DNA from: a virus
Lineage: Duplodnaviria > Heunggongvirae > Uroviricota > Caudoviricetes
Strand: one strand, 5' to 3'
Virus record (IMG/VR): IMGVR_UViG_2778261543_000009
Location: 1-31,069 of that record
Length of the DNA: 31,069 nt
The position numbers were made by a program, and so were the translations under genes. Under the pieces are notes generated by a model. The model saw nothing but the letters and a program-made list of their open reading frames with translations, ran no database searches and was not told the DNA's origin. Positions 27,030 through 28,933 of this stretch are shown here, one piece after another (the first letter of the stretch is position 1; each line of letters opens with the position of its first letter).

Positions 27030-27281
27030 TTAGTCCTGATTTTTATCCACCCTGAGTAGTTCGCGCAGGGCAAAGGCATCCCCTTTTCTGGCAAGCTTAA
27101 ACAATGCCGCCCGTAGCTCGGCTTCACCTTTCGCTCTGCCCTTACGGATGGACGCATAAAAATTTGTCATTGCTTCCCGATTTTCTTTCAGTCGGTTCAG
27201 ATCAACATCCAGAACGTCAGCTATTTGTTGTGCAGTCATCCGGCACGCTGCCAGAGACTCGACTTTCGAATACGGAATCAT
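27030..27281 (-). CDS. Small putative DNA-binding protein (HTH-like)
   Basis: 83 aa with a helix-turn-helix-like stretch TAQQIADVLDVDLNRLKENREA; SD GGGGGTGA before the ATG at 27281; an alternative ATG lies at 27239. Confidence 0.4.
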   Translation of the reverse strand: MIPYSKVESLAACRMTAQQIADVLDVDLNRLKENREAMTNFYASIRKGRAKGEAELRAALFKLARKGDAFALRELLRVDKNQD

Positions 27282-28149
27282 TTGTCACCCCCATTGATAT
27301 GCAGGGTGTCTTCTTCCTGTATTTTTCGTGAAGGATTTTTACTGCAGCGTTGTTCCAGGTGACCTGATGGTGAATGCGTTTATGGCTGGCACCCATCAGT
27401 GAGATTTTTACGCACGACGGCGCATACATGACGGAGTAAAAACTTTTAACGTAGGTTCCGGAATCCAGATACAGCTCGGTCATTCCGCCGCTGTTTTTCT
27501 GCGTCTGTTTCTGCCCTAACTGGACAGCACCGATCGTCATAAACAATTCACCACGGCGACCGAGATTCGTGTACGTATTCACATCCTCGTTAATGCGCCC
27601 CATGAATGAGAACGGTCGCTCGACCGAACAGATAAAGCTGTTCATTGCCTTGCGTTTCACCCATGAAGCATGGCCGCCATTGTCACCAAGAAAATCCCCG
27701 CCCTGCGACATAGCGATGGAAAGAGCAGGTATTGATTCGTAATACGCCAGCATTTCAGAAAGGATCGCATCCAGTTTCCTTATCGGAAAATAGGCCTGGT
27801 CATAGTTGCGATCCACCCGAAACTGAAACTCGTGATAATCATCATCGAGCTGAATGAAGTATTTACACCCGACCAGTTTTGCCAGGTCGAAACAGGCATT
27901 ACGGGCGTAAAAAATTGAGCGGCGGTCACAGAAATTATCGGCTTCGTCAAAACGACTGGCGATATCGGCTTTGGAAAACACCAGCACCTGTTCACCAAAT
28001 TCAGCCATGTACTGATGCCGTGTCTTATCTTCATCATCAACAACGATAAAAATTTTCCCGGTATAGCCAGCACGACGCAACGTCCGGTAAGTCAGAACTT
28101 TGTCCGGTCGCCCGTGAGTCAGAATAAAGGCGCAAAAATCATCACGCAT
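27217..28149 (-). CDS. GT-A-fold glycosyltransferase-like protein (candidate DNA or protein modification enzyme)
   Basis: About 310 aa from the ATG at 28149 (8-nt overlap with the ParB-like stop, SD GGAGGAGG); motifs in the usual GT-A order: FILTHGRPD, IVVDDEDK, QLDDDYHEF (DxD-like); no transmembrane segment. Confidence 0.45.
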   Translation of the reverse strand: MRDDFCAFILTHGRPDKVLTYRTLRRAGYTGKIFIVVDDEDKTRHQYMAEFGEQVLVFSKADIASRFDEADNFCDRRSIFYARNACFDLAKLVGCKYFIQLDDDYHEFQFRVDRNYDQAYFPIRKLDAILSEMLAYYESIPALSIAMSQGGDFLGDNGGHASWVKRKAMNSFICSVERPFSFMGRINEDVNTYTNLGRRGELFMTIGAVQLGQKQTQKNSGGMTELYLDSGTYVKSFYSVMYAPSCVKISLMGASHKRIHHQVTWNNAAVKILHEKYRKKTPCISMGVTNDSVFESRVSGSVPDDCTTNS

Positions 28150-28933
28150 ATTCCTCCTCCTCACCACCATGCATGATCTCCACCATGCGCTGCGTCATCC
28201 GGACAAATCCATTTTCAATAGCCTGCTGATAATCAATGATCACCAGTGCCGACTCCTCGAAAAAACACTGAATTTCAGCGGGGGCGTGAGCGTAATAGTC
28301 CGCAATTCTGCTGAAATTAAACACTGTGTGGCGTTCTGCCGCACACAGGAGGAATTTTTCGATATCAGGATCAAGGGACGCCGAACGTATCCGGCTGACC
28401 AGCTCCTGAGTTTTCGTATCGTCGTACAGTTCGCCGATATCCGGTTTATCGCCTGACGGCTCATAAACAGGTGTATCAATTTTCGTCGTATACGGCTCCT
28501 CCTCATTTTCTGTACCGGGCAAAACATCCGTCAACAGTTCATCAATTTCTGTCGGGCTGAAGCCTGTCAGGGAGACATCAAAATCAGCATTGATTAGGTC
28601 CGACAGCTCCATCCGTAACAGATCTTCATCCCAGCCAGCATTCATCGGCAGGCGATTATCTGCCAGGCGGTACGCCTTTTTCTGATCATCCATCAAACCA
28701 GACAGAACGATGACCGGAATGGAATCCATTTTGAGCACTTCAGCCGCCATAACGCGACCGTGACCAGCAATAATTTCGCCCTTTTCATCAATCAGCACCG
28801 GATTAGTCCAGCCGAATTGCTTAATGCTTTCTACCAGTTGTGCCACCTGCTCAGTGCTGTGTGTCCTGGCGTTGTGTGCATACGGAGACAGTTCTTGTAA
28901 AGGGCGATAGACGATCTTCAATTTCTCGCTCAT
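28142..28933 (-). CDS. ParB-like nuclease domain protein (ParB/Srx fold)
   Basis: 263 aa; N-terminal ...PYAHNARTHS...SIKQFGWTNPVLIDEKGEIIAGHGRVMAAEVLKMDSIPVIVL... matches the ParB N-terminal domain pattern found in phage proteins; followed by GWDEDLLRMELSDL...TGFSPTEIDELL; acidic C-terminus. Confidence 0.7.
   Translation of the reverse strand: MSEKLKIVYRPLQELSPYAHNARTHSTEQVAQLVESIKQFGWTNPVLIDEKGEIIAGHGRVMAAEVLKMDSIPVIVLSGLMDDQKKAYRLADNRLPMNAGWDEDLLRMELSDLINADFDVSLTGFSPTEIDELLTDVLPGTENEEEPYTTKIDTPVYEPSGDKPDIGELYDDTKTQELVSRIRSASLDPDIEKFLLCAAERHTVFNFSRIADYYAHAPAEIQCFFEESALVIIDYQQAIENGFVRMTQRMVEIMHGGEEEEYA

Follow-up and report, generated by a model that had tools for sequence, protein, structure and literature searches.

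On what molecule does a phage glycosyltransferase (GT) act when its gene is joined to that of a ParB-like protein beside the packaging genes? The question is raised by a 31,069-nt stretch of DNA from a tailed virus (Caudoviricetes; IMG/VR record IMGVR_UViG_2778261543_000009, positions 1 to 31,069), hereafter the window. It covers an integrated prophage's late region, with all genes of interest on the minus strand. An earlier note, made from the letters alone, had described two overlapping genes here, one with ParB/Srx-type motifs and one with motifs of GT-A-fold glycosyltransferases, and had proposed that the pair modifies phage DNA (or a virion protein) to evade host restriction. Both minus-strand genes are present where the note placed them (Table 1), and the transferase falls in TAGT, the GT-A family whose characterized phage members glycosylate DNA (PMC13216743; bioRxiv 10.1101/2023.12.21.572611). 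We find that the two genes form a fixed module in viruses of bacteria and archaea and that the partner protein carries a C-terminal domain which, judging from the alignments, is the element conserved with the transferase. What is new is a TAGT-type system without a hydroxylase and with a ParB-like partner of its own.

A Fixed Two-Gene Module in Viruses of Bacteria and Archaea

Relatives of the transferase were gathered from IMG/VR and from metagenome and genome assemblies, the IMG/VR sample being dominated by enterobacterial prophages. In tblastn searches, a ParB-like homolog lies immediately upstream of the TAGT gene, ending at its start, in 83 of 83 loci, among which the terminase, head, and tail genes differ; the pairing recurs in nine further loci, one of them that of Vibrio phage pv27, which carries only the C-terminal domain of the partner. 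These counts bear out the co-occurrence across phage genomes that the note had named as a check on the pair. A protein search of 50,697 phage records placed the same TAGT clade in Nocardia phage NTR1, halovirus HHTV-2, a gut phage, Lactobacillus phages (c5, LL-Ku, phiLdb, phi jlb1, and others), Porphyromonas gingivalis phages, and 191-kb Vibrio phages, and the hosts of the pair span at least five prokaryotic phyla, taking in Proteobacteria, Firmicutes, Actinobacteria, Bacteroidota, and haloarchaea. As the Nocardia, Lactobacillus, Porphyromonas, and haloarchaeal loci demonstrate, the arrangement survives down to 26% TAGT identity, and the Porphyromonas partner still aligns from end to end (hhalign 99.2%, E = 2.9e-19). 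Both protein families are large, with more than 8000 and at least 7924 clusters at 90% identity. The ParB-like and TAGT genes are a strict two-gene module, in an arrangement far beyond chance.

The pair stands directly ahead of the terminase genes in all small and medium-sized phages and metagenomic loci examined except one (L003), where no terminase was identified in the ~5 kb left before the contig end and a faint HNH match was the only hit. The gene order is ParB-like, TAGT, and large terminase subunit (TerL) in NTR1; cos, ParB-like, TAGT, two small open reading frames (ORFs), and TerL in c5; and ParB-like, TAGT, small terminase subunit (TerS), TerL, and portal in phi jlb1 and the Porphyromonas phage, while in HHTV-2 the pair is separated from TerL by eight small ORFs. 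In four metagenomic loci (L002, L092, L093, and L094) the pair precedes large terminases of the GpA, TerL_ATPase, and Terminase_3 types; with the Terminase_6N type of the window, the association spans at least four Pfam families. The 191-kb Vibrio phages are a second exception, their pair lying among replication genes and not before the terminase. For the window itself, the note had put the pair directly upstream of the terminase genes; the pair does precede them, but an 83-aa TerS-like ORF intervenes before TerS.

Between TAGT and TerS, locus L094 encodes a 320-aa epimerase/dehydratase of nucleoside diphosphate (NDP)-sugars (3418-4380; Pfam Epimerase, GDP_Man_Dehyd, and RmlD_sub_bind), which fits a true sugar-nucleotide pathway and suggests, from gene content, a tailored sugar donor for the transferase. 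In L093, three consecutive GT2 genes and a fourth gene whose GT2-type match is faint (17837-20316) come after that of the major capsid protein; glycan extension or virion glycosylation is a possible role for them.

Read from an ATG at 28170, as in the first reading, the transferase has 317 aa and its gene overlaps the ParB-like gene by 29 nt. That start is probably not the one used. A Shine-Dalgarno sequence, GAGGAGGAGGAA, lies at 28151-28162, one base before ATG 28149 and inside the ParB-like gene; PHROG and all homologs begin at this ATG, and RefSeq and GenBank annotate a gene of 933 bp. The TAGT start is most likely at 28149 on this evidence, and the overlap of the two genes is then 8 nt, not 29 nt. 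Within it, in ATGCGTGA (28142-28149), the start codon of TAGT shares bases with the stop codon of the ParB-like gene, which is, as far as sequence can tell, the classic geometry of translational coupling. In distant loci the junction is likewise overlapping or directly abutting, as in L092, where the two genes abut.

An Intact TAGT Glycosyltransferase

Membership of the transferase in the Pfam TAGT family (PF20691) is established by profile search: over residues 15-229 of the 317-aa reading it scores 123.6 bits, where the gathering score is 27.5 (E = 1.3e-35); the family profile is carried by 120 of 120 homologs among the matches listed, and PHROG 842 matches the protein at 2.5e-103. The three motifs that had been read as GT-A-type, FILTHGRPD, IVVDDEDK, and QLDDDYHEF, lie about where the note had them: counted in the 317-aa reading, they are at residues 15, 42, and 107. 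The active-site signature comprises R14 in FILTHGRPD, DDD (27838-27846), NED (27583-27591), and a C-terminal RxHH, and R14, D102-D104, E188-D189, and R258/H261 are invariant in 27 homologs down to 60% identity. This corresponds to the R...DDD...ED(Y/F) signature of biochemically validated phage DNA GT-A enzymes and JGT (bioRxiv 10.1101/2023.12.21.572611), but ED is followed here by V, with Y four residues on.

An AlphaFold2 model built on the 27 homologs adopts the GT-A fold that structure prediction had been expected to give, with a mean predicted local distance difference test score (pLDDT) of 75 and values >90 for most of the first 150 residues. No hydrophobic segment was found in the transferase (maximum Kyte-Doolittle 19-residue mean, 1.08), in agreement with the earlier observation of no membrane anchor, and a GtrB-type enzyme, which the note had thought unlikely, is excluded: GtrB-type and other seroconversion glycosyltransferases are membrane-associated and use a lipid-linked or envelope acceptor, whereas this one lacks a hydrophobic segment and occurs in Gram-negative, Gram-positive, and archaeal viruses. 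A PDB sequence search with the TAGT profile returned no meaningful match, and the PADLOC defense models gave none to the transferase. The TAGT of the T4-like Aeromonas phage 65 aligns over 243 columns, including GRxNED, TQ..GG, and RxHH, at about 22-25% identity. The transferase is predicted to be a soluble, metal-dependent (DxD) GT-A enzyme that uses an NDP-sugar.

PHROG 842 and RefSeq label homologs "beta-glucosyl-HMC-alpha-glucosyltransferase" after the T2/T6 enzyme, a member of the same Pfam family that adds a second glucose to alpha-glucosyl-5-hydroxymethylcytosine (5hmC) and requires a deoxycytidylate (dCMP) hydroxymethylase and an alpha-glucosyltransferase. Such a T-even-type second glucosylation was considered and rejected, since no hydroxymethylcytosine pathway and no alpha- or beta-glucosyltransferase is annotated in the carriers examined. 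Because neither dCMP hydroxymethylase nor alpha-glucosyltransferase is annotated in the Rac-type prophage regions or Lactobacillus phage genomes examined, we regard the label as a transferred name and not as an assignment of function. NCBI names some E. coli TAGT homologs "GREB1-related protein." The TAGT family itself is said to have been defined by Iyer et al. in 2013 (Nucleic Acids Research, NAR).

A ParB-Like Partner with a Distinct C-Terminal Domain

The partner protein has a net charge of about -27 and an isoelectric point (pI) of 4.4. Its place in the ParB/Srx superfamily is established by profiles and motifs. It scores just above the gathering threshold of Pfam ParB_N (PF02195; 28.3 bits vs. 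26.3, E = 1.8e-6), PHROG 620 covers its full length (4.9e-89), and PGAP names the gene ynaK / ParB/Srx family. By HMMER, IIAGHGR aligns column-for-column with the box II sequence LIAGERR in 4umk and 6sdk, two solved ParB/Spo0J structures, which puts AGHGR (residues 56-60; GHGR codons, 28754-28765) in the box that had been proposed for it, and IPVIVL, the second motif read previously, begins at residue 72. In homolog alignments, G57, R60, N21, and D92-N93 of the N-domain are near-invariant.

Residues 1-146, comprising this fold and an acidic linker, match PHROG 498 "DNA methyltransferase" (profile positions 31-172 of 633, E = 1.7e-50) and PADLOC MTase_II PDLC03229 (positions 13-153 of 436, E = 1.1e-38), far better than they match the partition-ParB model TIGR00180 (7.6e-9), which aligns to the N-domain only and remains under its cut-off (35.6 vs. 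58.45). Because these matches are to the N terminus of ParB-methyltransferase fusions, the same ParB-N module is elsewhere joined to a DNA-modifying domain. On its domain content, the protein itself is excluded from being such a fusion: no methyltransferase domain was detected in it by Pfam, PHROG, or PADLOC, which matched only the N-terminal part of the fusion profiles. Compared with the ParB-DNA methyltransferase fusions (PHROG 498; PDLC03229; B. cereus Bce_0392), the partner shares the N-domain and acidic linker, whereas a novel C-domain replaces the methyltransferase, and catalysis is predicted to come in trans from the overlapping TAGT gene. A partition ParB is excluded by the same kind of comparison; no helix-turn-helix (HTH) or dimerization Pfam domain was found in the protein, and the annotations of the two prophage regions inspected (the Rac-type prophage of E. 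coli SC418, described below, and the related region L001) include no ParA gene.

The pairing with a ParB fold seen in the note stands, but the conserved partner of this TAGT clade is, on sequence comparison, the C-terminal domain that it missed. Among the most distant relatives, conservation is higher in the C-terminal ~110 residues than in the ParB fold (42% vs. 25% in NTR1, 45% vs. 28% in L083, and 60% vs. 41% in L002), whereas in closer relatives the two halves are about equal. The 191-kb Vibrio phages encode, ahead of TAGT, a 139-aa protein that consists of this domain only (52% identity) and has no ParB-N, and in a metagenomic protein of 534 aa (P0374) a TAGT domain (residues 5-193) and the C-domain (residues 400-511) occupy one polypeptide. 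An HMMER scan of 1.84 billion representative proteins revealed 1185 clusters with the domain; in the best 150 of these it lies at or near the C terminus, mostly in proteins of 250-300 aa, and sometimes stands alone.

The domain opens with an extended, nearly invariant motif, YTxKIxxPxYEP (28457-28492); in this N-terminal segment Y148 and Y157 are invariant and T149 is near-invariant. Its model shows five helices after the extended segment (pLDDT 86.6). No fold match for the ~110-aa domain was found in the PDB, and no similarity to it in the N-terminal extension of the T4-like TAGT. Full-text literature searches likewise gave no description of the fixed module or its C-domain, which by these searches appears to be novel, and glycosyltransferases are not mentioned in a full-text survey of the ParB-CTPase fold (PMC12704722). 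Besides its C-domain-only pair, one Vibrio phage has an annotated PurZ-like "2-aminooxy adenylosuccinate synthetase," a hint that its genome contains 2-aminoadenine.

A Proposed Role in DNA Glycosylation

We propose that the module carries out ParB-assisted glycosylation of phage DNA late in the phage cycle, before or during packaging, and we give this reading a little less than an even chance. Both genes would be made late, with the packaging machinery, as one translationally coupled enzyme module; the 310-aa transferase would take a sugar from an NDP-sugar; the 263-aa partner would hold or activate the transferase on double-stranded phage DNA; and the phage genome, glycosylated just before or during packaging, would be altered with respect to the nucleases of the next host. 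Conserved residues show an intact catalytic site, and gene position shows expression late with the packaging genes; DNA as the acceptor, the role of the partner, and the anti-restriction benefit we infer from the comparisons drawn here. The viruses that carry the pair have hosts and virion proteins with little in common. We base the proposal on the intact transferase, the coupled partner, the late position, and the wide spread, together with a thymine dioxygenase precedent: a ParB-like protein with a nucleotide-binding domain (NBD) and a C-terminal domain (CTD), and no DNA-binding domain, is required by its cognate thymine dioxygenase specifically on dsDNA, and structural predictions place the dioxygenase between this activator's NBD and its CTD (PMC13229309). 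Of the interpretation in the earlier note, the assignment to a DNA-glycosylating GT-A family stood and a ParB-like activator now has this precedent, while DNA modification and restriction evasion are still proposals.

In that system, 5mYOX176/ParB176 (O'Toole et al., PNAS 2026, PMC13229309), the ParB-like protein resembles the partner described here in having an NTP-binding N-domain and a CTD, in lacking a DNA-binding domain, and in being encoded beside a DNA-base-modifying enzyme, the likeness being one of architecture and adjacency. Its client is an Fe(II)/2-oxoglutarate (2OG) dioxygenase, whereas here the client would be a glycosyltransferase, activated by analogy. The TET/5mYOX-associated DNA glycosyltransferases (PMC8256090, Burke et al. 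2021) and the trypanosome JGT share with our transferase the Pfam family, the GT-A fold, and R...DDD...ED, and the TET/5mYOX-associated enzymes are, like this one, soluble, phage-encoded, and often near ParB-like and terminase genes. They adjoin a C5-methyltransferase plus 5mYOX or a ThyS-like hydroxymethylase, whereas none was found here, and unlike them this clade has an obligatory partner bearing a novel C-domain.

Several observations weigh against DNA as the target, chief among them the acceptor. The characterized phage GT-A enzymes act on 5hmC or glucosyl-5hmC, and JGT on 5-hydroxymethyluracil (5hmU); the hydroxylated bases in question come from a methyltransferase acting with 5mYOX, or from ThyS-like hydroxymethylases (PMC13216743; bioRxiv 10.1101/2023.12.21.572611). 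Our search for such enzymes covered annotations and Pfam gene lists, hypothetical genes not being individually profiled. No TET/5mYOX enzyme or hydroxymethylase is annotated in the early region of the Rac-type prophage, where a 147-aa S-adenosylmethionine (SAM) methyltransferase is the only methyltransferase-type candidate; none is annotated in the related prophage region L001 or in the complete Lactobacillus phages c5 (31.8 kb) and phi jlb1 (38 kb); and no Pfam Tet_JBP, thymidylate-synthase-like, or cytosine-methylase gene lies within ±10 kb in L002, L003, L092, L093, or L094. ThyA of Vibrio phage pv27 was considered as a hydroxymethylase and set aside, as it scores as a true thymidylate synthase equivalog (~117 of 191 kb inspected). 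Canonical DNA has no hydroxyl on any base, so DNA glycosylation here would need new chemistry or an unrecognized acceptor. The partner is strongly acidic in every lineage compared (pI 4.05-4.83) and has no recognizable DNA-binding domain, and the transferase is not consistently basic (pI 5.4-9.5 across lineages). Full-text literature searches found no experiment on a ParB-TAGT pair or on full-length ynaK proteins. A TAGT-type domain can, moreover, serve a protein acceptor, as in GREB1, which is reported to carry such a domain and O-GlcNAcylates a protein (PMC7968844); GREB1 is a large animal protein that glycosylates ER-alpha, and it shows that a protein acceptor is possible while saying nothing direct about the phage enzyme.

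With no acceptor-generating enzyme found, the pair counts as a "solitary" or "orphan" phage glycosyltransferase. Solitary TAGTs occur in 288 of 753 GT-encoding phage genomes (PMC13216743), and ~65% of GT-containing contigs have no neighboring base-modification enzyme (bioRxiv 10.1101/2023.12.21.572611), in both cases unexplained; the latter study lists ParB and terminase genes among the neighbors of phage glycosyltransferases. A stronger form of the DNA proposal, in which the enzyme directly glycosylates canonical, non-hydroxymethylated phage DNA at packaging (for example on an exocyclic amine or at some other site where glycosylation has not been known before) with the ParB-like protein assisting as a clamp, we consider unlikely. 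If true, it would represent a new kind of DNA modification, present in the Rac-type prophages of about one-sixth of complete E. coli genomes and in other bacterial and archaeal viruses.

That the transferase instead O-glycosylates a protein is, in our judgment, a less likely reading. The target would most economically be the YTxKIxxPxYEP motif of its own partner, or else a packaging or virion protein produced concurrently, and the ParB-like protein would be a substrate or scaffold and not a DNA clamp. No DNA hydroxylase is needed in this case, the C-domain is the only universally co-occurring element, and a TAGT-C-domain fusion protein exists; the invariant Y148 and Y157 and near-invariant T149 would offer acceptors in an extended segment, although the tyrosines may be mere interface residues. 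GREB1 (PMC7968844) and the four additional GT2 genes beside the capsid gene of L093 point the same way, and the acidity of the partner, which speaks against DNA binding, keeps this model alive together with the missing acceptor chemistry. The N-domain and linker, however, are a module found on DNA methyltransferases, the Vibrio phage pair lies among replication genes, and the characterized phage members of the family act on DNA. Moreover, the virion and terminase proteins of the carriers come from unrelated families, so that no common external protein target is evident.

Quite improbable, in our judgment, is a counter-defense or metabolic enzyme that acts on a small molecule or RNA (a nucleotide, a signal, or an RNA 2'-OH) or depletes NDP-sugars, with the ParB/Srx fold as an NTP-binding catalytic or regulatory module of the kind seen in sulfiredoxin and SerK. 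ParB/Srx folds do bind CTP, ATP, or GTP and include enzymes outside partition (PMC12704722), the pair has neither a DNA-binding domain nor a base-hydroxylating partner, and its target must be common to bacteria and archaea; but ParB-N is dispensable in the Vibrio phages, so NTP chemistry cannot be the core, neither the transferase nor the C-domain has a PADLOC or other defense match, and the tight link to packaging genes would go unexplained. In lambdoid prophages, cargo is commonly found between the lysis and terminase genes, as would suit a prophage defense against incoming phages, for instance by glycosylating the hydroxymethylated bases of superinfecting T-even-like genomes, or a lysogenic conversion function. 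The idea that prophage glycosyltransferases hypermodify invaders has been raised (bioRxiv 10.1101/2023.12.21.572611), and the 5hmC or 5hmU of an invader would supply the missing acceptor. We nevertheless hold this to be highly improbable, because the pair is kept in phages listed as virulent or without an annotated integrase (HHTV-2, c5, and the 191-kb Vibrio phages), belongs to a late operon, shows no more promoter-like sites of its own than shuffled sequence would, and is matched by PADLOC in its ParB-N module only. Prophage GT-A enzymes often serve seroconversion, and GenBank labels the first gene "chromosome (plasmid) partitioning protein ParB"; an ordinary partition ParB beside an unrelated envelope (O-antigen or teichoic-acid) glycosyltransferase is nevertheless effectively refuted. 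This candidate was rejected on the missing HTH, the absence of an annotated ParA in the regions inspected, a TIGR00180 score below cut-off, and the lack of a membrane segment; in addition, the prophage has an integrase and sits in the chromosome at ttcA, the two genes are translationally coupled and co-inherited, and their hosts, haloarchaea included, have entirely different envelopes.

Under the DNA proposal the module would either make a base modification not seen before or reach a known one by a new path, and it would add a second client enzyme class for ParB-like activators; were the target a protein, it would be a new conserved phage protein-glycosylation system tied to packaging. A large, well-delimited share of orphan TAGTs is resolved into a fixed two-gene module with its own partner domain, and the question of what orphan TAGTs act on becomes directly testable in E. 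coli, the easiest host.

Prophage Context and Prevalence in E. coli

In E. coli SC418 (NZ_LR778147.1), which a 2-kb test stretch of the window matches at 100% identity, the element is a Rac-type prophage adjoining ttcA that carries intR/xisR, recET, kilR, and ydaSTUV by RefSeq annotation. As a query, the stretch matches 1568 of 5426 complete E. coli genomes, 866 of which (16% of the total) contain at least 80% of it at high identity. In K-12 MG1655 (NZ_CP010443.1), positions 2168174-2168427 correspond to window 28680-28933, and the Rac gene ynaK consists of the first ~84 codons of the ParB-like gene joined directly to ydaY. By this alignment ynaK is a truncated remnant of the full-length ParB-like gene. 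The Rac deletion in K-12 took the C-domain along with TAGT and the genes for packaging and the head, and K-12 is therefore a natural null background for the pair.

Within the late transcription unit, the pair is placed between the upstream lysis cassette and the packaging genes (Table 1). Small ORFs fill the short stretch between the endolysin and the ParB-like gene, and TerL is followed by portal, MuF-like head protein, protease/scaffold, and major capsid protein genes, beyond which lies a contractile-tail module with sheath, baseplate, and fibers.

Table 1. Features of the module and its surroundings (window coordinates unless a locus is named)
Feature	Position	Strand	Basis or remarks
Holins	30409-30741 and 30677-31069	minus	Pfam Phage_holin_3, RefSeq annotation
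GH108 endolysin	29862-30428	minus	Pfam Glyco_hydro_108 and PG_binding_3
ParB-like partner gene, 263 aa	28142-28933	minus	ORF list; Pfam ParB_N, PHROG 620
ParB/Srx nucleotide-binding-type N-domain, residues 1-100	28634-28933	minus	Alignment to 4umk and 6sdk
Acidic linker, residues 101-140, WDxxLL...LTGF...E(I/L)D	28514-28633	minus	Match to ParB-DNA-methyltransferase fusions
C-terminal domain, residues 141-263	28145-28513	minus	Extended motif, then predicted five-helix bundle; pI 4.3
Putative translational-coupling junction	28142-28162	minus	GAGGAGGAGGAA then ATGCGTGA
TAGT-family GT-A glycosyltransferase, 310 aa (317 aa from upstream ATG at 28170)	27217-28149	minus	Pfam TAGT, PHROG 842
TerS-like ORF, 83 aa, overlapping the TAGT 3' end	27030-27281	minus	PHROG 309, E = 2.5e-22
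TerS (small terminase subunit)	25935-27026	minus	Pfam Terminase_2 / Terminase_6N and PHROG 51 / PHROG 2 cover TerS and TerL
TerL (large terminase subunit)	24617-25945	minus	Terminase_6N-type
Vibrio phage C-domain-only plus TAGT loci	L089 7459-8888 (pv27); L098 30930-32042		

The 83-aa ORF covers only positions 145-218 of 319 of PHROG 309, an internal segment of this small-terminase PHROG. It accompanies the pair in enterobacterial loci, where it is kept beside it even when TerS falls to 40% identity, and it is absent from L002, L003, L080, L082, and L083. Since it is missing from distant loci that carry the pair, the ORF, although probably packaging-related by its profile match, probably lies outside the core module; one possibility is that it split off from the packaging system as a piece for DNA recognition.

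Consensus scans for a promoter belonging to the pair did no better than on shuffled sequence. About 15 nt ahead of the start codon of the ParB-like gene, at window 28950-28995, TTTTTT follows a GC-rich inverted repeat (CCCGC...GCGGG); the element is terminator-like, with a loop of ~25 nt, and was not reported by the consensus scan. Read-through of this element would need antitermination. Within the tail-gene block, window 7001-8900 is an AT-rich island (GC 0.35 vs. about 0.50) that holds a 248-aa ORF (7222-7968, minus) with no Pfam or PADLOC match and, on the opposite strand, an anti-repressor (Ant) gene (8302-8871, plus); the island looks like acquired cargo.

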